NCBI GenBank assembly: GCA_022865705.1
Contig: JALHTG010000108.1
Span: 627-64,626, forward strand
Reading direction: 5' to 3'
Source: Candidatus Bathyarchaeota archaeon
GTDB taxonomy: Archaea; Thermoproteota; Bathyarchaeia; 40CM-2-53-6; JALHTG01
DNA length: 64,000 nucleotides
Below, in pieces: positions 10,277 through 22,922 of this stretch. The translations under genes and the position numbers were made by a program. Within the stretch, counting starts at the first letter, position 1; each line of letters opens with the position of its first letter. Under the pieces are notes generated by a model. It ran no database searches, was not told where the DNA came from, and saw nothing but the letters and a program-made list of their open reading frames with translations.

Positions 10277-10284
10277 GCGCGCGC
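10277..10284. repeat. Alternating CG run, 8 nt (GGCGCGCGCACTAG)
   Basis: Left edge of accessory island 1, between the histone gene and the PIN fragment. Confidence 0.9.
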
Positions 10285-10310
10285 ACTAGTCGTCCGCACT
10301 TTGTTCTGAG

Positions 10311-10616
10311 GTGGCTCCGGAACTGGCTGAGGATGCGCTGAACTACGCCGTGGCTTACGGTGTCGAGTCTTGGGATGGCTACCTGATCGCCTTGACGAGA
10401 AGTCTAGGAGCCAAGACCGTTTACTCCCTTGATGAAGAGCTTTCCAAGGTGAAGGAGGTTTCCGTGAACTGTCCCTTTACCAGAGAAAAGCTGGATGAAT
10501 ACCATCAATACGTTGAAGGTGTTCTCAAGAGGCAGGGTATCTCAAGCCTTATTCACAACGCTCACAAAGGGCAGAGGGCGAAGAAAGAGCATGCGCGCCG
10601 CTATCCACGCAGATGA
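10311..10616 (+). pseudogene. PIN-domain (VapC-like) C-terminal fragment
   Basis: Only the C-terminal PIN segment is present (WDGYLIALTRSLGAKTVYSLDEEL). No N-terminal acidic residues. Begins just after the CG run at 10277. The tail reads through another GCGCGC at 10593. Confidence 0.5.
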
Positions 10617-10621
10617 GATAA

Positions 10622-11257
10622 GTGATGCTTGCCAATGGGAGGGTTCGTCTTCTTCCTAACCGAGTTCGTTGCGCTCGTGCCGATCGGGCGCGCGACGCCA
10701 AGACCATTCTCTTCGTCGGCGCCCTATCCAAATGGCATGGCTACAAAGGCCTGGAGGTTCTCATCAACGCTCTCGCAATAGCTAGCAAACTGCGAAAAGA
10801 CATGGCCCTACTTGTTGTAGGCGACGGAATCCTCAAGCCAGCCTACCAGAAGCAAGCTTCAGAGCTCAACCTTTCAGACAAAGTCATCATCGCAGGAGAC
10901 GTATCAGACCAAGACCTCCCATCCTACTACGCCGCTTTGGACTTACTCGTTCTGCCAAGCAAAGACAGGTCCGAAGGCTTCGGCCTCACGATTCTTGAAG
11001 CAAACGCATGCGGAAAACCCGCAATCTGTTCCAATGTCGGAGGAATCCCCGACGTGATCCACCACGGACGTAATGGCCTCCTCGTCCCGCCGAATGATCC
11101 AAAGGTGCTCTCCAATGCGCTAGTCCTCCTTGTCGAAGACGACTCTCTGAGAACAGAGATGGGAAGGAACGGTCGGAGATTCGCAGAAGAACACGACTGG
11201 TCAAAAGTCGCAGACGCAACTGAGAAGATATATGATGAAGCTCTGCAGCAGCACTAG
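10622..11257 (+). pseudogene. GT-B (family 4-like) glycosyltransferase, C-terminal half only
   Basis: Recognisable homology starts at KTILFVGAL, right after the CG run at 10688-10694. EGFGLTILEANACGKP and GGIPDV motifs are present. The whole N-terminal Rossmann domain is missing. Confidence 0.65.
10688..10694. repeat. Alternating CG run, 7 nt
   Basis: Immediately precedes the first recognisable residue of the glycosyltransferase fragment. Confidence 0.9.
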
Positions 11258-11478
11258 GTCCTATTTCTTGTCTCGATCCTTGTTAGCAAGATCTACATAA
11301 GTTCTCCTCGCTCACGAAGAGCAACCTGGTACCTTCTACGGGCTTAAGCGAGCGAGGCTGTTGAATGGGTATAGCGCACGCTAAGGCCACTGTCTCCAAG
11401 AGGGAGGCAAAGCACAATTCTGTTTCGAAAGCAGACCTGGGGGCAGGTGAAGCAAACTAGGTCTCAGCTAGAACTATA

Positions 11479-11485
11479 GCGCGCG
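11479..11485. repeat. Alternating CG run, 7 nt (TATAGCGCGCGG)
   Basis: Intergenic, between the glycosyltransferase fragment and the HEPN/MNT pair. Confidence 0.9.
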
Positions 11486-11605
11486 GGGCTCGCTGACAGC
11501 GATACGAGCGATGGTTATCGTCTCTGCTCTAGGATCGGGATACAACTGCTTTCATGCTTGACGTTACACACAATGTATTGCTAAATAGGCCCATTCGACA
11601 CTACA

Positions 11606-12028
11606 ATGTCAGGTGGACGCCCCTTGGTTATGAGAACCAGAGACTGGTTCAGGCAGGCTGTGAAGGATCTCCAGCACGCCAAGAGGTCGTCTGATGCTGG
11701 GGATTTTGAGTGGGCATGTTTCGCCGCTCAGCAAGCCGCCGAGAAGGCAGTCAAGGCGCTTTATCAAAGTATGCATATAGACGCTATCGGACATTCGGTT
11801 TCGAGGATGATGCAAGACCTCCCTGATTCTATGAAACCACTCGAGGATCTTGTGGAGCAGGCGAAGGAACTGGACAAACATTACATTCCCAGCCGCTATC
11901 CCAACTCTCATCCGGAGGGAGCTCCCCTAGACTATTACACAGTGTCTGAGGCGCGGAGAGCTGTGGAAGGAGCAGAGACGATAATTGAGTTCTGTAGAAA
12001 TAAGATACCTGAAGATCAACTTCGATGA
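11606..12028 (+). CDS. HEPN domain protein (toxin partner of a HEPN/MNT pair)
   Basis: 140 aa. HEPN-type helices with A(A)EKAVKAL and the Rx4-6H-like segment SRYPNSH. Confidence 0.75.
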   Translation: MSGGRPLVMRTRDWFRQAVKDLQHAKRSSDAGDFEWACFAAQQAAEKAVKALYQSMHIDAIGHSVSRMMQDLPDSMKPLEDLVEQAKELDKHYIPSRYPNSHPEGAPLDYYTVSEARRAVEGAETIIEFCRNKIPEDQLR

Positions 12029-12422
12029 GATCCTCCGACGGCTAAGGGAATACGCCAAGTCCAAAGCCGAAGCACATGGAGCAAGAGCGATCGTTCTTAC
12101 AGGTTCATTGGCCAAGGGAAACTACGCTGGAACCTCAGACGCAGACGTCCTCGTCATCGCGGACAACCTTCCCAGTCAAGCACTCGAAAGATATGCTCTC
12201 TTCTCTGAACCTAGAATGCCGATCGACGTAGAGCCGCGAGTGTACACCCCAGAGGAATTCATTGACAAGATCCGCAAAGGCGACCGCTACGCGCTTGAAT
12301 CCCTCGAAATCGGCATACCCCTTCACGGCGAACAGTTCTTCAAGGGCCTCAAAAGATTCCTCACTAGCTTTCCCGGTAACCCTGGCCAGCGGCGCGCACG
12401 GCCGGCCGAATCACTGAGCTAG
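11985..12422 (+). CDS. Minimal nucleotidyltransferase (MNT) partner of HEPN
   Basis: GSLAKGNYAGTSDADVLVIAD (GSxxxG...DxD). Overlaps the HEPN gene. The last ~12 codons are encoded by GCGCGC plus GGCCGGCC (12392-12407). Confidence 0.75.
   Translation: MSSVEIRYLKINFDEILRRLREYAKSKAEAHGARAIVLTGSLAKGNYAGTSDADVLVIADNLPSQALERYALFSEPRMPIDVEPRVYTPEEFIDKIRKGDRYALESLEIGIPLHGEQFFKGLKRFLTSFPGNPGQRRARPAESLS
12400..12407. repeat. GGCCGGCC palindrome (context cACGGCCGGCCga), 2 nt after a GCGCGC
   Basis: Read directly. Lies in the 3' tail of the MNT ORF. Confidence 0.95.
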
Positions 12423-12491
12423 ACGACAAGCTGAGCACAGTGGTCCAGCATATTGCCCTTCAGCCATCCAGCGTTAAGGCTCTTGAGCCAG

Positions 12492-13004
12492 GAAAAGAAA
12501 AAGAGCAACTTAACGAATCGAAAAGATCTATCTAACTCTAGATTCTAGGCCAGGGCGTACAGCGTCCGCTAACGATCCCGTGTTCAGTGGATGGGAAAAA
12601 GGGGCGTTAGGGGATTCTTCCTCCAATCACTGAAATCAAAGTGTGCGGCGCGAGTGGTGCGCACAGACAATTCTGCCGCCTTCTAGACGAAGAATAAGAT
12701 TCCATCCAATACTAGGTGAGTCGTCCAACCCAGAAAAGCCCCGACCATAATCCATCTGATCTTTTTCAGCGATGTCAACGGCAATGCCAGCATGGCAAGC
12801 AAGATGAACGGGTAGACCCAGTAATGAAGAAGGGTCAACGGAAAGTATTCCGTTCTTAGTTCCCATCTGAACAAATCCCAAAACGTGAAGGGAACAACCT
12901 GGCTTGCTCTGACTTCCATTCGGAAAAGATGGTCTAGGTCTGGGAACTCCATCATAAACAAGACGAAAAGATAGAACAGTCTCTGAGGAGATCGTATTCC
13001 ACAT
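12492..13004. repeat. Copy A of a ~510-bp direct repeat (3' flank and C-terminal two thirds of a DUF457-like gene)
   Basis: Aligns by eye with 14643-15151. The gene-internal part is close to identical, and the 12492-12680 flank is more diverged. Confidence 0.85.
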
Positions 13005-13213
13005 CGTCTGAGAACAAGGAAAAGCGCCAGGCACATGATGGCTCCAAACAGGATGTGAGATAGGCCGGCCGTTATCACTGATGCAACTACTACGGAAGGC
13101 ACTAGAACTGCTCCGATTCCACCAAGGGGTGCAAAAGCCAGATATCCAAGTGGGATCATGGGTAGGAATCGAAGAACCGATCCTGCCAAAGCAAGAGCGC
13201 CGAGGTGAAGCAT
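12683..13213 (-). CDS. Polytopic membrane protein, DUF457/YdjM-like membrane-bound metal-dependent hydrolase family
   Basis: 176 aa, hydrophobic throughout, ends TTHLVLDG. Contains an in-frame GGCCGGCC at 13063-13070. Confidence 0.5.
   Translation of the reverse strand: MLHLGALALAGSVLRFLPMIPLGYLAFAPLGGIGAVLVPSVVVASVITAGLSHILFGAIMCLALFLVLRRCGIRSPQRLFYLFVLFMMEFPDLDHLFRMEVRASQVVPFTFWDLFRWELRTEYFPLTLLHYWVYPFILLAMLALPLTSLKKIRWIMVGAFLGWTTHLVLDGILFFV
13063..13070. repeat. GGCCGGCC palindrome (context taGGCCGGCCGTta)
   Basis: Read directly. The only copy inside an apparently intact ORF (DUF457-like, encodes T-A-G-L). Confidence 0.95.
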
Positions 13214-13399
13214 TCATCTCGTTTGAGACTTTGCTCTAGCGAAGCAAATCCAAGAGAAAACGTTCCCCGAGAGAAACGATGCCAGCCAATCCAAGTAAGG
13301 CGACATCAAAACTACGTACGGCAATTCACAAGCCGACGCAAGCAAGGGCAGTGAAAAGAAAAGGTTCACAGCCGAGAAATAGAAGAAAGCCAACATCAA
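13214..13399 (-). CDS. Small hydrophobic ORF abutting the DUF457-like gene (TGAATG junction)
   Basis: 61 aa with two predicted TM segments. No recognisable family. Confidence 0.25.
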   Translation of the reverse strand: MMLAFFYFSAVNLFFSLPLLASACELPYVVLMSPYLDWLASFLSGNVFSWICFARAKSQTR

Positions 13400-13441
13400 G
13401 ATCTTGCTCGAAGCAGACTTCGAGCTTTCTGGTCAAATGAG

Positions 13442-13453
13442 ACGCGCGCGCGT
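13442..13453. repeat. 12-bp perfect palindrome ACGCGCGCGCGT (10-nt CG run)
   Basis: Intergenic. Has the same ACG...CGT frame as ACGGCCGGCCGT at 14608. Confidence 0.9.
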
Positions 13454-13595
13454 ACCCCGATAACCGCAAGGCTCCCATGGAAGCTTCTGAACTCCGAGGC
13501 AGATTTGGTTCATGCTGGATTTCCTAGCCCGTACAACGCCTTCTCCGCCTCTATAGTTTCCGCGATCAGAAGAACCCCCACCATTCTAACATGGC

Positions 13596-13603
13596 GGCCG
13601 GCC
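13596..13603. repeat. GGCCGGCC palindrome (context gcGGCCGGCCgc)
   Basis: Read directly. Intergenic, upstream of the MazEF-like pair. Confidence 0.95.
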
Positions 13604-13716
13604 GCGAACAACGCATAGCAAACTTAAATTCTCTCCCAAGCCCGATAAGTCCCAGAGATATGAACAAACTGGTTCATGAATGGTCAGAACTCGGAAGCGT
13701 GTGTGGGTGACATAAC

Positions 13717-13905
13717 TTGACGATAGAGGTTGAGATCAAGGAGATCAAAGAGATGTTGGGAGAGTTGAACAAGAAACTGGACGCGCTTGTTCAAGAGCGA
13801 GAAACAGTGGCAATGATGATTATGTCCCAACAATCTCTCAAAGATTTCCTCATGAGTGAGCCAGACCTGTACTCTATAAGGGACGTAAAGGTAGCGTACA
13901 AGTGA
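13717..13905 (+). CDS. Putative antitoxin of the MazF/PemK-like toxin
   Basis: 62 aa with TTG start. Coiled and charged sequence. 4-nt overlap (GTGA) with the downstream toxin gene. Confidence 0.5.
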   Translation: MTIEVEIKEIKEMLGELNKKLDALVQERETVAMMIMSQQSLKDFLMSEPDLYSIRDVKVAYK

Positions 13906-14231
13906 AGGGCAAGATCGTTCTCATACACTTCCCCTTCACGGACCTAACAAGCTCAAAATTGAGGCCCGCACTGGTCTTGATGGAAGGCGAGAAGGACTGT
14001 GTCGTCGCTTTCATATCATCCAGAATACATGCGGAACCTTCATCTATGGAGATACTGATTCCAGAAGATCATAAAGAATTTGTCAGTACGGGACTCAAGA
14101 AAACCTCGGTCGTAAAGCTCGATAAGATTGCAACGATATCAAAGGATCTGATGCTCGGCGAGATTGGAGAGATCGGGGAAACTCTCCGAGTAGAGGTGAA
14201 CAGGAAACTTCGGGACGCATATCAGCTGTAG
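13902..14231 (+). CDS. mazF: PemK/MazF-family toxin (endoribonuclease-like)
   Basis: KGKIVLIHFPFTDLTSSKLRPALVL and KTSVVKLDKIATI follow the MazF/PemK pattern. Confidence 0.7.
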   Translation: MKGKIVLIHFPFTDLTSSKLRPALVLMEGEKDCVVAFISSRIHAEPSSMEILIPEDHKEFVSTGLKKTSVVKLDKIATISKDLMLGEIGEIGETLRVEVNRKLRDAYQL

Positions 14232-14529
14232 CAAGTCCTTGAATATCGAGCATGAGCGATCGTACGCAATTGGATGATGCGGTACCAGTCCGCGTTTCGT
14301 ATACATCTTTGTTTTGAAATCATTCTCCCTGAAAAGATCATCTGATGAGTTCCAACTCGGAGCATTAGAAGAAGTGAATGAAAAGCATGGCATATTGGCG
14401 TATCCACAAACAATCAATGAGGAGGGGTGAAGAGCAATAATACTCCTCATAGGCAGTTGGAGCATATCATAACTGCAAGACCTCTATTCGAACGCCTCCA
14501 AAGGCAGGTTATGGAAGCGGTGGAAAAGA

Positions 14530-14536
14530 CGCGCGC
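14530..14536. repeat. Alternating CG run, 7 nt (AGACGCGCGCC)
   Basis: Intergenic, downstream of the MazEF-like pair. Confidence 0.9.
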
Positions 14537-14607
14537 CAGCTTGGTCCGAAATCTAAGTCTCTGTGTCAAGAATCGACTTTGTACATGTTGACCGCGGGAA
14601 AGTCCAA

Positions 14608-14619
14608 ACGGCCGGCCGT
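14608..14619. repeat. 12-bp perfect palindrome ACGGCCGGCCGT
   Basis: Read directly. Intergenic, downstream of the MazEF-like pair and 18 nt before a CG run. Confidence 0.95.
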
Positions 14620-14636
14620 AATATCACAAGAAACTG

Positions 14637-14643
14637 GCGCGCG
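14637..14643. repeat. Alternating CG run, 7 nt
   Basis: Left boundary of repeat copy B. Confidence 0.9.
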
Positions 14644-15151
14644 AAAAGAGAAAGAGAAGCTTCACTAATCGAAGAGATCCACCTAGATCAGAACCTTACG
14701 TCAGGACATACAGCGCCCAATAACGATCCTGTGTTCAATGGGTTAGGAAAACGGGGTCGAAAAATCCTTCCTCCAATCACAGAAATCAAAGTGCCTGGCG
14801 CAAGTGGTGCGCGCAGACAATTCCCCCCTCTAGATGAAGAGCATAACTCCATCCAATACTAAGTGAGTCGTCCAACCTAGAAAAGCCCCGACCATAATCC
14901 ATCTGATCTTTTTCAGCGATGTCAACGGCAATGCCAGCATGGCAAGCAAGATGAACGGGTAGACCCAGTAATGAAGAAGGGTCAACGGAAAATACTCCGT
15001 TCTCAGCTCCCATCTGAACAAATCCCAGAACGTGAAGGGAACAACCTGGCTTGCTCTGACTTCCATTCGGAAAAGATGGTCTACGTCCGGAAACTCCATC
15101 ATGAACAAGACGAAAAGATAGAACAACCTCGGAGGGGATCTTATTCCACAT
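14643..15151. repeat. Copy B of the ~510-bp direct repeat, bounded on both sides by CG runs
   Basis: Starts at the last base of the CG run 14637-14643. Homology to copy A ends at 15151, one base before GCGCGCGC at 15153-15160. Confidence 0.85.
14830..15126 (-). pseudogene. Truncated second copy of the DUF457-like membrane protein gene (lacks the N-terminal ~75 codons)
   Basis: The 98-aa product is nearly identical to residues ~80-176 of the 12683-13213 product. Confidence 0.8.
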
Positions 15152-15170
15152 AGCGCGCGCTAGTATGTGG
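15146..15170. repeat. Imperfect 25-nt palindrome CCACATA-GCGCGCGC-TAG-TATGTGG
   Basis: Right boundary of repeat copy B and the stop of the membrane-protein fragment. The outer 7-nt arms are exact reverse complements. Confidence 0.9.
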
Positions 15171-15468
15171 CGCAAACAAGAATAGTGCTCAAGGCAAGCG
15201 GGACAAGTCGTAGAAAGACCGAGGGATCTAACCTTGAGATTTCCTTGATTGTGTGAAGAAGAAGGAAGAAGAATGGCCGCTCAGTGGAGAAGGCAATCCG
15301 AAAGCCCATTATGTCCATGCGACCAAGCACATAGGCATAATATCTAGCGTCTTGACCGAGAGGATATCCCCGAGACCACTGATAGCTTGAGACAAAAACC
15401 CCCAAGAGAACAGCGAAGCCAACCAGAATTCTCCAGTCGAGCCAAGTCTTTCTCGTCTTGCCGCTCAT
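15160..15468 (-). pseudogene. N-terminal ~100-aa fragment of a polytopic membrane protein (GT-C/ArnT-like N-terminus)
   Basis: The reading frame stops at a TAG immediately adjacent to GCGCGCGC (15153-15160). The fragment is too short for this type of protein. Confidence 0.45.
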
Positions 15469-15638
15469 CTCATCCGAATGAAGTAGACCACGTTTCGCTC
15501 GATTAGTGGCAAACTTACTGCCAGCCGGCTACGCATAGAAACAGACAGAAAGATGAGAATCGGCCACATATCGCCAAAACATCAGAACCCCTGAGACAGA
15601 AACAGTTTAACTGTGATTCCTGCAAGTAGGGACGATGT

Positions 15639-15749
15639 GCTCCGGTCGTCTAGCCCGGTCAAGGATCGTGGCCTCTCGGGTTGCAGGAGAAAGCCATGGA
15701 CGCGGGTTCAAAATGGTTCCAAGCCATGAAAATCCCGCCCGGAGCACCA
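15639..15749 (+). tRNA. tRNA-Glu (anticodon CUC) with two intron-like insertions and an encoded CCA
   Basis: Acceptor stem GCTCCGG/CCGGAGC, then A73 and CCA. D arm has A14, G18G19, A21. Anticodon stem GTGGC/GCCAT with CTC at 15675-15677. A 13-nt insertion follows position 37 (15679-15691). T stem GCGGG/CCCGC encloses 27 nt instead of 7, which implies a ~20-nt insertion (~15713-15732). Confidence 0.8.
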
Positions 15750-15836
15750 CATCTCTGAGTTGGCAACTCATACATATGGGCATCCTGATACTGCACTAAC
15801 CATCTCTCTGCCCAAACGAGTTCTTCGGTAGTCCCG

Positions 15837-16235
15837 TCACAGCCATTCAGACCGGATTTCATGAATTTTCTTGAAGTGTGAATCGTCTGAAAGCACGCGT
15901 CTTGACTTTGTTTCTATGCTTGTTGCGGCAACAATCGAATCAGCTGTGGGCAAGTCTCTATATTGGCATCTGAGCTTGGCGGACATCAGTGCAATCCTAG
16001 TCGTCAAATCGACTATTCTAAACCGAGAAACTATGATCGAGTTAACGCGAAGCCGGGCGGCATCTTTTCCAACGTTGTCATACATGAATTTGTGGATCTC
16101 GTGGAGCACAATCGTTGGGACTATCGCTGTCTCGCGCTGGAGTTCAGCCATTTTTCGTGAGGTTTTCTGCTTGAGTTGATCTGTGTTTGCAACATAGTGT
16201 GTCAGGAAGAAACGTGTGTCAACGGTGAGTGGCAT
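15837..16235 (-). CDS. vapC: PIN-domain toxin VapC
   Basis: 132 aa. Acidic PIN residues in the contexts VDTRFF, LHE, ADS, SDD. Confidence 0.8.
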   Translation of the reverse strand: MPLTVDTRFFLTHYVANTDQLKQKTSRKMAELQRETAIVPTIVLHEIHKFMYDNVGKDAARLRVNSIIVSRFRIVDLTTRIALMSAKLRCQYRDLPTADSIVAATSIETKSRRVLSDDSHFKKIHEIRSEWL

Positions 16236-16237
16236 AC

Positions 16238-16474
16238 TCAGTACCTGTCTTGAGTCCTCAAGCCGTCCAGCCTCTTCTTCATCTCTTCTAAGCTGATCTT
16301 GCCAGCGTCAACTCCTGCCAGGTCTTCTATGGGGGTGATGGGCTTAATGATGATGCCCTCTTTGCTGTCTCTTATGAGGACTCTCATTCCTTCTTTTATC
16401 CCGTATTTCCTTCTCTTCGTAATGGGTATTGTAACTTGGCCCTTCCTAGTGACCAGCACGATTTGCTCCGACAT
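16238..16474 (-). CDS. vapB: AbrB/SpoVT-type antitoxin VapB
   Basis: MSEQIVLVTRKGQVTIPITKRRKYGIKEGMRV is a swapped-hairpin AbrB-like motif. Start set to the internal ATG at 16474. Lies 2 nt upstream of vapC. Confidence 0.75.
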   Translation of the reverse strand: MSEQIVLVTRKGQVTIPITKRRKYGIKEGMRVLIRDSKEGIIIKPITPIEDLAGVDAGKISLEEMKKRLDGLRTQDRY

Positions 16475-16909
16475 TGCAGTTCGGTAGTACCGTAGCAAAA
16501 GGTTGTACTTAAGATGTTTATCCTGGACACAGTGGATTGTGGGCCGGACGATTTCCGGAAGCCTCCATCGAGGCAGCGGGCCTAGAGGATAGGTCACATT
16601 TCTCTTCGCAGGTTTTGAACCCAAATGAGTATGGATCCCCGCCCGGAGCATCATTGAAAAAGTCTGAGTTGTGGCTCCAGATTTCTATGTTTGGTTGTCT
16701 CTTTCTTCTTGAAGGCTTGAGTCGACTATTCGTTGCAGGGTAATAATCTTTCTTTCCAGTAGCTCTGGTCTCTGGCCGTGATAGGTTTCGTTGCGGTTGA
16801 GGAAGCGGTTGATGCGTGGAAAAGCACGCCTGGTAGGACATCAGTTTGAGTTTGTCTTGATTGTTTATGAGGCCGGCAAGCCAGTTAGAAATGCTGTACC
16901 GCGCGGAAC

Positions 16910-17116: not shown

Positions 17117-17377
17117 TGAACCTCTCCCTCTTCACTGGGTTGAAGATCAAGACGACTATATTACCATTAGCCATCTTGTAGACTACCCTGATAGCGTATT
17201 CTCGATCCAGCGGCTTGAGTGCCAACAGTTGGTCGTCTCTTCGGTCAACTCGGCTTGGCTTGCGACGGCTTCTCTGACAGAAACTTCGGAAATGTCGAAC
17301 CCGTACCTTCTCAAGAACTCGAATTTGTCGCGAGCATGCTTCGTGAGTCTGATCCTCTTCAATCTTTCAGCGGTCAA
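17109..17377 (-). pseudogene. DUF4258-like toxin gene with an apparent 1-nt frameshift
   Basis: The N-terminal frame (LTKHARDKFEFLRRYGFDISEV) stops at 17183. A second frame continues ...ALKPLDREYAIRVVYKMANGNIVVLIFNPVKRE and ends at 17109, overlapping the ATG of the DUF2283 gene. Confidence 0.55.
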
Positions 17378-17910: not shown

Positions 17911-17926
17911 GGAGAAATGAAAATTG
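17911..17926 (+). promoter_or_regulatory. Shine-Dalgarno-like GGAG plus TTG start of the surface-protein gene, overlapped by a 4-codon mini-ORF (ATG AAA ATT GAA TAA)
   Basis: GGAG at 17911-17914 lies 9 nt upstream of TTG at 17924. The ATG at 17918 is out of frame and stops after 4 codons. Confidence 0.4.
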
Positions 17927-20900
17927 AATAAGAGAATAGGCGCTGCTTTCATAGTAATGCTATTTGCTTTAGGCATTGTTTCTGTTCCAGTATCCGCCCA
18001 CTTCACCTTAGGTGTACTGACACCAACATACGACTTCCATGCAAATGACTATGACCCACACGTGGCCGGTATCGTTGGATATGTCTGGCCAGGTGTAGGC
18101 TATGCTACAACTGCCACTGGCGCTGGTGGCCTTGCGGCACCACAGTACCCAGGCTACCAATCACCGTACCCCGGAGGAAACCCAGGAACAAAGGGCACAG
18201 GTTATGCTGGGCTCTCTGGTCCTTACAGTACAGGTTTCTATCCGCCGGGATGGTACCAGCTAGAGGCGAACAACTACGCGCCCTTCGGAGCGATATTGGC
18301 GAACACGATCAAGCCGAGTACACCCCCAGTCTTCGCCAGCACATGGTGGGGCAACCCGACCGTTGAAGGATTGCCGATCGAACTTGGCCCTGATAGTAAG
18401 CCAAACTCGCGCGGTGATCTAGTATTCGCTTTCAACGCTACCAAGGGCTTCTACGCCAACTACACGGAGCTCTTCTTATGGGTTCCAGCGGAGTTCAAGG
18501 GCATCACCTCCTCCAAGGTTGTGGCGTCATGGACGAACAACTACGACCAAATCCTAGTGAAGAGAGGCGATCTGGACAGGAACATTTACGGCAAAGGAGA
18601 CGGCTCCACCGACTACTGGACCAGCATGTATGCACCTGGTTGGACCTGTGTTAGGGTCCACGCAGACCGAGGCTACTACTTCAACAACACTCAGAAGGAT
18701 CCCGCACTGAAATCGGACATATTCTACTACCCACGCGTCATGAACTTCACCGATAAGGCTGAGTGGTACTATCTGGCCCTTAACGATGTAACCGCCCCAG
18801 TGGTCTCCGGACGATACTTCTTCAAGGTAGGCTTCAGGGCCCCGAACATGACCATCAATGTCGCCACGGGAATCCCGCAGTACTTCATTGATGGTTCCAT
18901 GTACTTCGAGTTCATGGACATTCGGAACTGGCCTGTTCTGACTGTGAAAGGTGAGGTGGATCCTGCCATCCTTACGGGCTTCATTAAGTTTGGTGGTTGG
19001 AACACTACGCTTTACGGCCAGAACGTAACCTTGCCAGGTAGAGTCAGAGCTGTAGGCATAGCTGATAATCCGTACACTGGTGTGTCCCTCAACAAGCCTG
19101 TAGAGGCTCGAGGCTACTTCAACCAGACCGCGAAAGGTCACTATGAGGTTGAAGGAGTAGCACCTGGTACGTACGATATCTATGCTTCATGCGCTGGCTA
19201 TCCTGAGCAGAAGATCGCTAGCGGAGTAAAGATCCAGAAGGGTCAATCCTATCACATTGATGGGTATTTGACTCCTGGAGCCGTGATTCATGGTACGGTG
19301 TTCTCGAAGTGTGGTACAGGCGAGATTCAGTGGGGCGCAGAGCAAGCGATGAAAATAGAGATCTACGCAGCTGCTAAGACGGCCGCTGCAGACGTTGAGA
19401 CTGTCAAACCTAACTCCAGGTTCAGTCCTCCGGCTACGGCCAGCGATGTACTCTACGCGTATGACTCTGGTTATCTCACAAAGTCAGTGAAGATGCCAGT
19501 AACCTGGTCACCAGTGCCAAACCCGACGAAACTCGGCGAGCCCACCTACGTCATCGGCCGACAGTACAGCGCGGCTACTGTAGCAAGTGGTGCACGCGAC
19601 TACTCGTACACATCCCCCAGCTACGCTGCCTCGAACAGCTTCCAATTCCCATGGTACTTCCCGTACTTAGGGAAGGGCTACACTGAGGTAGGCTACGACA
19701 GTGCGAACGCCAAGATAGGCCACGACCCGATGGGTGTTGGACCTCTGCAGAGCTGGCTCACCTCTTCCTCTCTCACCTACTTCACATGGAAGTTCGGTGA
19801 TCAGGGCAAGTACGGTGCGCCAAGCGACTGGTCTGGAATGGTTCCAGAGTACAACGCAACATGGACCAACGGTCTACCAGCTGGCCAATACTACACCAGA
19901 GCCTGGACTCTGCAATACGTGCAGACCCAGCCTGACGGAGTAACCTTTGAACACGCCTCATTCGTGATAGCTCCATCAGAGTTCCCAGGAGACATCAACG
20001 TCCCATTCGACATAAGGAAGGGTAGCATCGTCAAGAAGACGATACACTTCCACGATGTCCCAGGAACACTCACAGAGCTAGGCATTCACGGACTGCCGAA
20101 GAGCCACTTCAGGCCACACGTCGATGCTTACCACTCGACCGTGAAGGATGCTGAGATAAGAATCAGGATCTACGTGCGAGACGCAACTTCTTCAGCCTTC
20201 GCATGGGGATACTCAGACAACATCCACGCCACCGACGGCCCAGTCACGTCTTCCATAAAAGGATACGATGACAAGGGCTACGCTGGAAGAAGCTACGGAA
20301 TACCTGCGGGCGACTACAAGATCGAGGACAGGGTTGAAGGCTTCGTCCAGGAACCGAAGGACTTCTGGGTATCAGTCGGCCTATGCGGAACCATTATCGA
20401 AGTAAGCAACCATGTCTACAGAGGAGTTCGCTTCAACATAACAATATTCGCTAAGGACTGGGAGCATCCGACCGTCGACCAGACTTGGAAGTATAACAAC
20501 GATGTGGTCTACGTCGGAGTCTACAAGGACGGCGTGCTGCAAGGTGTGATGTGGACCTGGACTGTAAAGTCCTACAAGCCCGTCGTACTCAACATCACTG
20601 ACTGGTTCAGCGACAGAATCATAGCAGGCGTCTGGGCCTGGGACACAGGACTCTACGAGTTCAAGGCCTTCGTCTACGGCTATGTTCAGAAGAAGCCTGT
20701 TCAGGTCTACGCCACACGTGGCGCCCTGGCGGACATTCTGATCAAGCTGACCGAAGGAGCTCAAATTCCAGTGACGATGAAGTTCAAGCATGAATCGATC
20801 TTTGAAGACTTCCACTGGAACGCATCGATGAGAGTCCGAGTATTCGACGACGCGAACAACCTTGTCGGCGAATACATGACGTCTGACCCATGGCACGGAT

Positions 20901-21775
20901 ACCTAGACTATGACGCGACCACAGGCATAACCAAGCAATTCACCGACTTCACAGTGAAAACAGGATACTCCAAGCAGAAGAGCCCCTTGGACGACAAGGA
21001 GCTCAACTACGTGCCGAAACCAACTACAACGCTTCAGTTCACGATCTGCGGTACACCTGACACGCGATTCTGGTGGTACGACAGCTCAACGGACCCAGCC
21101 GCATCGGACTACGATCACCCCAGCCCAGCATTTCCGACCTTTGACCTAAGCTGGCATGCATACAGCAAGACTCATCTCGTCGACGCGCCCTACGGCATAG
21201 ATGCCGATCCTAACTACAAGGGTGCGTATCGACTCGAAGTAGATGTTGTCCCATGGTACAACTGGAAGTCATTCTTCCCAATGCCATTGGGAGGACTCTA
21301 CGGTGAGTCACCGAAGTACGTACCGGAGAACCACCTAGGACCCTGGGTACTCAACTTCCCGATAACTGTGCCCGGAATGCACCTAGGCGGAAAATCCTCA
21401 CTGTACTTCGAGCTTGACATGCGAGGAAGCACAGCTGGTCTAGTGACAGGCTACACATGGTGTGACGACTGGCGGCCAACATCGTGGGCCGGAGTCGTGT
21501 TCACCGGAGCCGACGGCAAGGTCGTCGAGCGTGTGCCAACCAAGGACGGACAATACTTCGCATATCTGCCGAGCGGACAACTCAGCATGACCATAACGCA
21601 CGGTGGATACGTAAGCCCGAAGGTCCCAGTCTACGTCACTGACGGAGGCTTCGGCCTAAGAAACGTTCCATTGGAACGCGCGAACGTACCCATCCCAGAG
21701 TTCCCAGTAGCAGCAGTGGTTCTAGCATTCTCGCTAGCAGCGTCTCTATTCATACTACGGCGCAGAAGAAAGTAA
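17924..21775 (+). CDS. Giant secreted cell-surface (S-layer-like) protein with a PEF-CTERM-type archaeosortase sorting signal
   Basis: 1283 aa. Signal peptide AAFIVMLFALGIVSVPVSA. Carboxypeptidase-regulatory-like segment GHYEVEGVAPGTYDIYASCAGY. At least a dozen N-x-S/T sequons. C-terminus PIPEFPVAAVVLAFSLAASLFILRRRRK. Confidence 0.8.
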   Translation: MNKRIGAAFIVMLFALGIVSVPVSAHFTLGVLTPTYDFHANDYDPHVAGIVGYVWPGVGYATTATGAGGLAAPQYPGYQSPYPGGNPGTKGTGYAGLSGPYSTGFYPPGWYQLEANNYAPFGAILANTIKPSTPPVFASTWWGNPTVEGLPIELGPDSKPNSRGDLVFAFNATKGFYANYTELFLWVPAEFKGITSSKVVASWTNNYDQILVKRGDLDRNIYGKGDGSTDYWTSMYAPGWTCVRVHADRGYYFNNTQKDPALKSDIFYYPRVMNFTDKAEWYYLALNDVTAPVVSGRYFFKVGFRAPNMTINVATGIPQYFIDGSMYFEFMDIRNWPVLTVKGEVDPAILTGFIKFGGWNTTLYGQNVTLPGRVRAVGIADNPYTGVSLNKPVEARGYFNQTAKGHYEVEGVAPGTYDIYASCAGYPEQKIASGVKIQKGQSYHIDGYLTPGAVIHGTVFSKCGTGEIQWGAEQAMKIEIYAAAKTAAADVETVKPNSRFSPPATASDVLYAYDSGYLTKSVKMPVTWSPVPNPTKLGEPTYVIGRQYSAATVASGARDYSYTSPSYAASNSFQFPWYFPYLGKGYTEVGYDSANAKIGHDPMGVGPLQSWLTSSSLTYFTWKFGDQGKYGAPSDWSGMVPEYNATWTNGLPAGQYYTRAWTLQYVQTQPDGVTFEHASFVIAPSEFPGDINVPFDIRKGSIVKKTIHFHDVPGTLTELGIHGLPKSHFRPHVDAYHSTVKDAEIRIRIYVRDATSSAFAWGYSDNIHATDGPVTSSIKGYDDKGYAGRSYGIPAGDYKIEDRVEGFVQEPKDFWVSVGLCGTIIEVSNHVYRGVRFNITIFAKDWEHPTVDQTWKYNNDVVYVGVYKDGVLQGVMWTWTVKSYKPVVLNITDWFSDRIIAGVWAWDTGLYEFKAFVYGYVQKKPVQVYATRGALADILIKLTEGAQIPVTMKFKHESIFEDFHWNASMRVRVFDDANNLVGEYMTSDPWHGYLDYDATTGITKQFTDFTVKTGYSKQKSPLDDKELNYVPKPTTTLQFTICGTPDTRFWWYDSSTDPAASDYDHPSPAFPTFDLSWHAYSKTHLVDAPYGIDADPNYKGAYRLEVDVVPWYNWKSFFPMPLGGLYGESPKYVPENHLGPWVLNFPITVPGMHLGGKSSLYFELDMRGSTAGLVTGYTWCDDWRPTSWAGVVFTGADGKVVERVPTKDGQYFAYLPSGQLSMTITHGGYVSPKVPVYVTDGGFGLRNVPLERANVPIPEFPVAAVVLAFSLAASLFILRRRRK

Positions 21776-22910: not shown

Positions 22911-22922
22911 AGCGCGCGCCAC
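22911..22922. repeat. AGCGCGCGCCAC, left copy of an identical 12-mer direct repeat
   Basis: Intergenic, 132 nt from the vapC stop. Confidence 0.9.

Follow-up and report, generated by a model that had tools for sequence, protein, structure and literature searches.

Mosaic variable islands that house defence and toxin-antitoxin genes are recognized by dense toxin-antitoxin pairs, gene fragments, remnants of insertion sequences (ISs) and of miniature inverted-repeat transposable elements (MITEs), presence/absence variants and deletions at microhomologies. All of these are found at the locus described here, which lies in a 64,000-nt stretch (the window) of contig JALHTG010000108.1 from assembly GCA_022865705.1, the metagenome-assembled genome of an uncultured member of the Bathyarchaeia (2.17 Mb, 117 contigs, contamination 6%); all coordinates are positions in the window. 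The locus comprises a direct repeat of ∼510 bp, the copies of which (A and B) flank a MazEF-like toxin-antitoxin pair, together with short tracts composed of G and C only. It departs from described islands in that a fixed 8-nt palindrome of G and C only, which the intact parental genes lack, is present at most of its seams. While the repeat alone is ordinary variable-island debris, the seam tracts are the unusual part.

Several other described systems resemble the tracts in part. The cyanobacterial palindrome HIP1 (GCGATCGC) is likewise an 8-nt sequence that is many-fold over-represented in some lineages only, and here the over-representation is 12-fold and patchy among 151 genomes. HIP1 is spread through coding DNA, whereas the tracts avoid long open reading frames (ORFs), which hold 26% of the sites but make up 81% of the genome, and instead mark seams. 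Integron cassettes, including those of archaeal integrons, also place single accessory genes between recurring palindromic sites, an arrangement seen here at C3:16014-21280, and toxin-antitoxin genes are among the cassettes. The site in the present genome, however, is 8-12 nt long rather than a 60-140-nt attC with R and L boxes, genes lie on both strands, gene fragments are joined and ORFs are found 6-25 nt from a tract. No IntI-type integrase was detected in the family scan of the ORFs around the locus, which covered 11600-16650 and was not extended to the whole genome. The repetitive extragenic palindromes (REPs) and the mosaic elements built from them (BIMEs) consist of 20-40-nt imperfect hairpins, in contrast to an 8-nt core with at most 2-3 conserved flanking bases. 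Filler DNA at end joining and the excision footprints of Tc1/mariner-type elements similarly leave a few extra bases at a junction, but the sequence here is fixed and independent of the flanks, the parents lack GCGC at the break points and no target duplication is coupled to it. Finally, the ISs associated with the tracts share with the IS5 family the DDE_Tnp_1 and DUF772 domains, inverted ends of 17-22 nt, a length of ∼1.1 kb, multiple copies and MITE derivatives. Unlike described members, they end in a (GC)3 run of which the length varies between identical copies, display no visible ordinary target duplication and occupy positions that are solo tracts in sibling strains. Such elements may be targeted to tracts on insertion, in which case the tract itself would conceal the duplication.

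A direct repeat composed of gene fragments

A first inspection of the sequence (the original prediction) had described a ∼510-bp direct repeat around the MazEF-like pair, with the coding part more alike than the flank, and had interpreted CG runs at both ends of copy B as the borders of a moved or copied block. These features were analysed by local alignment, and the locus was compared with ∼25 variant contigs from ENA (MEGAHIT), Logan and JGI assemblies, sibling strains and contigs diverging by ∼1%. The elements of the repeat and its seams are as follows.

12492-13004, minus strand: copy A of the repeat, consisting of the 3' flank (12492-12682) and the last 107 codons of the YdjM-like frame (local alignment, repeat finder)
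12683-13061, minus strand: last 125 codons of a YdjM/DUF457-like membrane-protein gene, which make up the chimeric ORF in its 3' part (tblastn with a 139-aa relative from contig L005)
13063-13070, no strand: GGCCGGCC tract at the junction between the halves of the chimeric ORF, (GGCC)3 in L071 and L080
13067-13429, minus strand: residues 6-124 of a 662-aa membrane-protein gene (fragment 1), in frame with the YdjM-like part to which they are fused (tblastn)
13443-13452, no strand: (CG)5 tract bordering fragment 1 on its upstream side, (CG)4 in L013; the right end of an IS abuts 13453 in L015
14636-14643, no strand: GGCGCGCG tract at the downstream (left) end of copy B
14643-15151, minus strand: copy B of the repeat, the equivalent gene part and flank, truncated at each end by a (GC)n tract and containing an open 98-aa frame (14830-15126)
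15153-15160, no strand: GCGCGCGC tract joining copy B to fragment 2, (GC)5 in L016 and L045
15163-15528, minus strand: fragment 2 of the 662-aa gene, residues 207-329 (tblastn, 61% identity)
15519-15526, no strand: decayed GGCCGGCC at the upstream end of fragment 2, TGCCAGCC in the window

Pairwise alignment confirmed to the base that 12492-13004 corresponds to 14643-15151, in direct orientation and 2.15 kb apart, with 86.8% identity over 516 columns (E = 3e-174, BLAST within the genome). The gap-free coding part (12676-12975 vs 14823-15122) is 94% identical, while the 3' flank displays a p-distance of 0.19 and 10 gap columns, in agreement with the stronger conservation of the coding part first described. 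Copy B is indeed delimited by CG runs: its left boundary is the last G of GGCGCGCG (14636-14643) and its right boundary is 15151, where a single A (15152) precedes GCGCGCGC at 15153-15160. Past the position equivalent to the right end of B, copy A continues with cgtctgagaac, and there is no tract at the left homology end of copy A (12492). The DNA outside the copy B block reads agaaactg on one side and tagtatgt on the other, and is thus without a target-site duplication. A single JGI contig, L071, covers 12682-16249 unbroken at 99.4% identity, and the order copy A, MazEF pair, copy B agrees in the ENA/Logan contigs L011, L012, L015, L016 and L017.

The gene at 12683-13213 had been called DUF457-like, a description that applies to only one of its halves. 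The nearest relative of the repeated gene is a 139-aa ORF in L005 and L010, which is 66% identical to the copy A region over residues 15-139 (tblastn) and matches copy B over residues 35-139. These alignments place the codons from 13061 downwards in a YdjM/DUF457-like family, although the family label is weak, as the L005 relative matches Pfam YdjM (PF04307) with E = 0.02 and 14.8 bits against a cut-off of 29, and none of the window ORFs matches PF04307. DNA homology to the L005 YdjM-like gene ends at 13061, directly beside GGCCGGCC at 13063. The remainder of the ORF derives from a gene that is intact, as a 662-aa ORF, in the same-genus genome G003 (L004 408-2396) but which tblastn detected in the genome containing the window only as pieces covering residues 6-124 and 207-329. 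All four ends of these two fragments abut a tract, and intact relatives contain no GC tract at the corresponding fusion places. The 176-aa 'gene' is therefore a chimera: at GGCCGGCC 13063, the frame of the 662-aa gene's N-terminus continues into the last 125 codons of the YdjM-like gene. By the same alignments, copy B is a shorter piece of a YdjM-like gene, to which the other piece of the 662-aa gene is attached at GCGCGCGC 15153. An exact-protein look-up returned no match for the 176-aa ORF nor for a core neighbour.

The chimeric ORF is being lost. It is open at 237-238 aa in L011 and L012, while the window, L071 and L017 contain TGA at 13214-13216 where other strains have TGG, and the (GGCC)3 variant of the junction tract in L071 and L080 introduces a +4 frameshift. 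The ORF is most likely dispensable because strains break it in different ways. Fragment 2 contains a 102-aa ORF (15160-15468) that ends in a TAG in frame with copy B. Read-through of this codon, which would fuse the two frames, was considered and rejected, as the genome lacks PylS (20.7 bits, cut-off 178).

Comparison of the coding parts of A and B gave a synonymous divergence (dS) of 0.265 and a non-synonymous divergence (dN) of 0.027 (dN/dS 0.10), with only 6 residue differences, mostly conservative. The dS is similar to the divergence of the flank (0.19), and therefore the copies spent most of their time apart as parts of working genes. As it also greatly exceeds the ∼1% among siblings, A and B are better read as two long-diverged homologues, brought side by side and then truncated, both of which evolved as working genes well before truncation. 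The proposal that the tracts mark the ends of a moved or copied block is consequently only partly upheld: both ends of B do lie at tracts, in keeping with a rule that holds across the genome (see below), but B is no fresh copy of A.

We consider it probable that the locus is a decaying patchwork of diverged gene fragments joined at GC tracts, within a variable island rich in toxin-antitoxin genes. Two 5'-truncated YdjM-like homologues, A and B, are linked to different pieces of the 662-aa gene, in each case by an 8-nt palindrome of G and C only, the seam of A being GGCCGGCC and that of B GCGCGCGC, with the MazEF pair, the remnant of an IS or MITE end and other scraps between them. The (GC)n and (GGCC)n tracts would be the usual seams between rearranged pieces in this population, and could be scars left without consequence by illegitimate end joining or, alternatively, sites that it prefers. 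Both the tracts and the 510-bp repeats, once in place, may favour further rearrangement.

GC tracts throughout the genome

The association of tracts with rearranged DNA extends well beyond this locus. The genome contains 346 copies of GCGCGCGC and 88 of GGCCGGCC where ∼29 of each are expected, corresponding to 12-fold and 3-fold over-representation, respectively, and (GC)4 (n=172) is more frequent than (CG)4 (n=28). The consensus extends to TA-GCGCGCGC-TA and AC-GGCCGGCC-GT, with no conservation seen beyond 2 nt on either side of the 8-nt core; no extended palindrome or attC-like structure was found around the tracts. ORFs of at least 150 aa, which make up 81% of the genome, harbour 26-30% of tract sites, compared with 86% of control GGATCC sites. 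Of the ends of internal repeats, 15.4% are no more than 6 nt away from a GC tract, in contrast to 0.75% of random positions. In islands such as C3:14900-24700, nearly every intergenic gap contains a tract, and the genes there belong to no known families.

Among the 151 genomes, enrichment of AGCGCGCGCT is found in a patchy set of Bathyarchaeia belonging to several families, while that of CGGCCGGCCG is essentially restricted to the present genome. Intergenic tract-bearing DNA was too diverged from same-genus genomes to show a clean insertion, and internal paralogues with and without a tract amounted to two unclear cases only. The literature search returned nothing relevant on the two octamers in archaea, nor on IS excision footprints.

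Slippage, decay and tracts at new deletions

Near-identical siblings allow each seam to be dated and compared. The tract at 15153 is (GC)4 or (GC)5, that at 13443 is (CG)5 or (CG)4 and that at 13063 is (GGCC)2 or (GGCC)3 in different siblings, showing that tracts slip by one unit. Point decay is also evident. The tract at 15519-15526 is an intact GGCCGGCC in L011, L015, L016, L045 and L051, TGCCGGCC in L012 and TGCCAGCC in the window, forming the series GGCCGGCC to TGCCGGCC to TGCCAGCC, and L057 displays a G-to-T change within the tract at 22911.

Tracts are also found in place of missing DNA. In L088 (JGI Ga0315289_10053539), GCGCGCGC stands in place of 504 bp (10751-11254) inside a GT4 glycosyltransferase gene, the TAG stop of which is retained directly after the tract; the parent of this deletion has neither an IS nor GCGC at the break points. 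Similarly, window 10279-10287 reads GCGCGCACT where L011, L012 and L014 contain a 1565-bp HEPN/nucleotidyltransferase segment (L011 824-2388); the ACT of GCGCGCACT forms ACTAGT with the AGT that follows. Cutting at a pre-existing GCGC or GGCC followed by fill-in was considered as a source of the tracts and rejected, as the parents lack those 4-mers both at the break points of B (L018 and copy A: cacatcgtctg) and at the L088 deletion.

A tentative generalization of the patchwork reading, which we regard as possible but doubtful, is that several Bathyarchaeia lineages possess an undescribed form of DNA end joining, the seams of which are marked by a 4-nt palindrome doubled in tandem, namely (GCGC)2 in many lineages, with (GGCC)2-3 as well in the present genome, and that one group of IS5-family elements has specialized in insertion at the resulting seams. 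The 510-bp repeat would then be one product of such joining, comprising two gene fragments captured at seams. The doubled 4-nt palindrome has the form that blunt joining of filled-in 4-nt overhangs would give. If true, a dedicated joining activity would represent a new gene-shuffling route in a major group of sediment archaea.

Insertion sequences at the tracts

Evidence that IS5-type elements frequent the tracts comes from the siblings and from the space between the two copies, which contains the following features.

14531-14609, plus strand: remnant of the left end of an IS5-type IS or MITE (GCGCGCCAGCTTGGTCCGAAATC...), truncated by the GGCCGGCC at 14610
14610-14617, no strand: GGCCGGCC tract

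The remnant shares 84% identity with the MITE at C67:110738-110865, which is 128 nt long and has matching inverted ends. Instead of copy B, L013 contains between 14531 and 15160 a complete 1.1-kb IS (ends GCGCGCCAGCTTGGTAC), the outer end of which forms the right half of the tract at 15153-15160. The element encodes a DDE_Tnp_1 domain (E = 1.3e-27) with an N-terminal DUF772 domain (E = 1.5e-6). Its terminal inverted repeats are 17 nt, those of such elements in L013, C107 and G035 together spanning 17-22 nt. The genome contains ∼22 IS ends of this type.

MITEs of ∼125 nt were observed at C67:110738-110865 and C16:75211-75339; they have inverted ends GCGCGCTAG(C/G)(T/A)TGGTC and are related to the IS5-type element. 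Contigs C8, C10, C12, C19, C69, C90, C97 and C108 all break in the same 127-nt IS left end (GCGCGCCAGCTTCTTGCAAAAC...), and therefore the assembly underestimates the IS copy number.

The most durable of the alternatives to the patchwork holds that the block was made by ISs, the tracts being the leftovers (4+4 terminal bases) of lost IS5-family elements and B having been relocated or shortened through composite transposition, recombination between ISs or an adjacent deletion. The ends of the ISs and MITEs, which read GCGCGC(C/T)AGC..., are consistent with this scheme, as are the sibling ISs that end exactly at the tract positions 13453 (L015) and 15160 (L013). Close transposase relatives (at least 53% identity) were found only in tract-rich genomes (G000, G024, G030, G035 and G038), and the IS copy on C107 is flanked on both sides by GTTTGTA, outside the GCGCGC. 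Copy B itself has only 6-8 nt of (GC)n at its ends, a full IS being present at the same outer positions in L013 and half a MITE at 14531-14609. Against these observations, 11 of the 16 tract-rich genomes contain no transposase. These include G107, assembled as a single contig, in which 94 AGCGCGCGCT sites occur without any transposase match at E = 1e-5, arguing against ISs as the only source of tracts. Nor do the solo tracts resemble simple excision footprints, as no flanking target duplication or direct repeat of at least 3 nt was found genome-wide and TA to the left and TA to the right are statistically independent (both at 13 sites vs 14.9 expected). Further evidence against the scheme is provided by the parent of the L088 deletion, which has no IS, and by the failure to find in the genome any IS with GGCC ends. 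Near-identical IS copies in G035, moreover, have end tracts of differing length, which would be expected if the tract belongs to the target. We therefore judge an IS-made block improbable, and an IS-only origin of the tracts unlikely. None of 14 IS copies in G035 displays a visible target-site duplication, which may be concealed within the tract.

As to the elements themselves, the balance tips slightly towards IS5-type elements inserting into tracts, with the duplication hidden inside the tract, whereas creation of the tracts by these elements seems unlikely; insertion would thus be the more probable of the two relationships. The locus shows GC-only octamers at true joins of unrelated gene pieces and reveals (GGCC)n as a second tract type with the same behaviour. 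Slippage and point decay are the behaviour of neutral DNA, while IS5-type elements live inside tracts, and the possible explanations of the seam marks are therefore narrowed. Indeed, an IS-only origin, simple excision footprints and cutting at a pre-existing GCGC are each contradicted by this locus or by related genomes.

Exchange between the copies and sibling deletions

Whatever their age, the two copies recombine, at least by conversion. The features concerned are as follows.

12732-12844, no strand: 113-nt stretch identical in A and B in this window (alignment A3)
13538-13611, minus strand: short stretch from which a hybrid HEPN ORF in L014 and L045 takes its 5' end, the right end point of an 11-nt microhomology deletion

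At least columns 77-118 of alignment A3 constitute a B-to-A conversion patch. At 8 sites where L011, L012, L071, L080 and L088 share an A-specific haplotype, the bases in the window's copy A are of the B type, and copy A of L011 contains a second, separate B-type patch. In addition, contig L018 is B-type on its left and A-type on its right, and runs beyond 15151 into the continuation of copy A. This junction could be that expected of a 2.15-kb circle or a tandem repeat or, alternatively, an assembly chimera. The original prediction that the MazEF module can be deleted by homologous recombination is thus supported in so far as the copies exchange sequence, although the ∼25 variant contigs include no deletion product of recombination between A and B. 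The loss that is observed takes another route: L014 and L045 lack 10279-13537, including copy A, through a deletion at an 11-nt microhomology (GCCTTCTCCGC) without a GC tract.

A recent local duplication, in which in-place copying by a process cutting at CG runs doubled the block and the copies bracket a deletable MazEF module, would account for the direct orientation and the spacing of 2.15 kb, for the tracts at both ends of B and for the recombination between the copies. The same-orientation copies are as in a recent segmental duplication; the divergence is neither young nor neutral, dS (0.27) and dN/dS (0.10) indicating an age far beyond the diversity of the population. Moreover, A and B are fused to different pieces of the 662-aa gene at different codons through different tract types, the left homology end of copy A has no tract and the predicted deletion product is missing from the variant contigs. 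The divergence pattern largely refutes this reading, which we deem very improbable.

Still less credible is a functional partial-gene cassette in which B serves as a silent donor for conversion of an expressed A, thereby varying a membrane protein. The conversion patches in the window and in L011, the low dN/dS and the upstream TAG in frame with B are features that such a cassette would display. However, the recipient ORF is broken by the TGA or the (GGCC)3 frameshift in three of eight assemblies, only 6 residues, mostly conservatively replaced, distinguish A from B, there is a single donor, the genome has no PylS to read the TAG and L014 and L045 have simply deleted copy A. An assembly artefact, the second copy or the tracts arising from strain mixing or mis-joins in a metagenome bin of 117 contigs with 6% contamination, where L018 shows that hybrid paths exist, has next to no probability, since at least seven contigs from three pipelines (ENA MEGAHIT, Logan and JGI) and different samples have the same layout and tracts.

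The preferred reading of the locus, a decaying patchwork, is itself opposed by several points. The strong purifying selection recorded in the comparison of A with B could indicate that at least one of the fragments remains expressed and useful. No source was found for GGCCGGCC, there being no multi-copy element with such ends. Deletions accompanied by a new tract are few, comprising one clean case (L088) and one that is less clean (10279-10287). With respect to recombination, the conversion patch in copy A of the window is seen in this assembly only and the hybrid contig L018 could be chimeric.

Other features of the island

The island encodes an HEPN/nucleotidyltransferase pair, a PemK/MazF toxin with a small upstream ORF and a PIN/AbrB pair. 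Its remaining features are listed below.

12391-12408, no strand: double tract GGCGCGC-A-CGGCCGGCCG within the nucleotidyltransferase ORF, at its 3' end and 84 nt to the left of copy A, with GGCCGGCC at 12400
13596-13603, no strand: GGCCGGCC tract left of the MazEF pair, in the context GGCGGCCGGCCGCG
13717-14231, plus strand: toxin-antitoxin pair, a 62-aa upstream ORF and a 109-aa PemK/MazF-type toxin with a 4-nt overlap

The 109-aa toxin matches PF02452 (PemK_toxin) over its full length (E = 1.8e-13). The 62-aa upstream ORF has no family match in Pfam and is coupled to the toxin start by the 4-nt overlap. The pair is 74-75% identical at the DNA level to sequences in two genomes of another family (G035:C3 and G030:C17) and was matched in no same-genus genome, a distribution that suggests acquisition by lateral transfer.

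Neither ARAGORN nor Rfam detected an RNA gene in the window. The island border (15639-15749) nevertheless contains a tRNA-like sequence that shows acceptor pairing next to the CCA and has apparent insertions; it is unreported by ARAGORN and by Rfam at the gathering threshold. Further to the right, the gene at 17924-21775 encodes a 1283-aa surface protein and has a second, 84% identical copy on contig C93, which is either a paralogue or derived from a second strain in the bin. In L045 (148-2456) the 54 bp at window 17118-17171 are replaced by a 2.3-kb insert that contains a ParE-type toxin-antitoxin pair as well as rve/HTH fragments; the right end of the insert is 5 nt away from TACGGCCGGCCGTA, and the left end is without a tract. 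Finally, in L057 (∼1220-1400 of the reverse complement), to the right of window 23788, the DNA beside a vapBC pair differs from that of the window and contains GCGTGCACC three times within ∼150 nt, repeats that may represent a further short palindromic seam or a MITE end.

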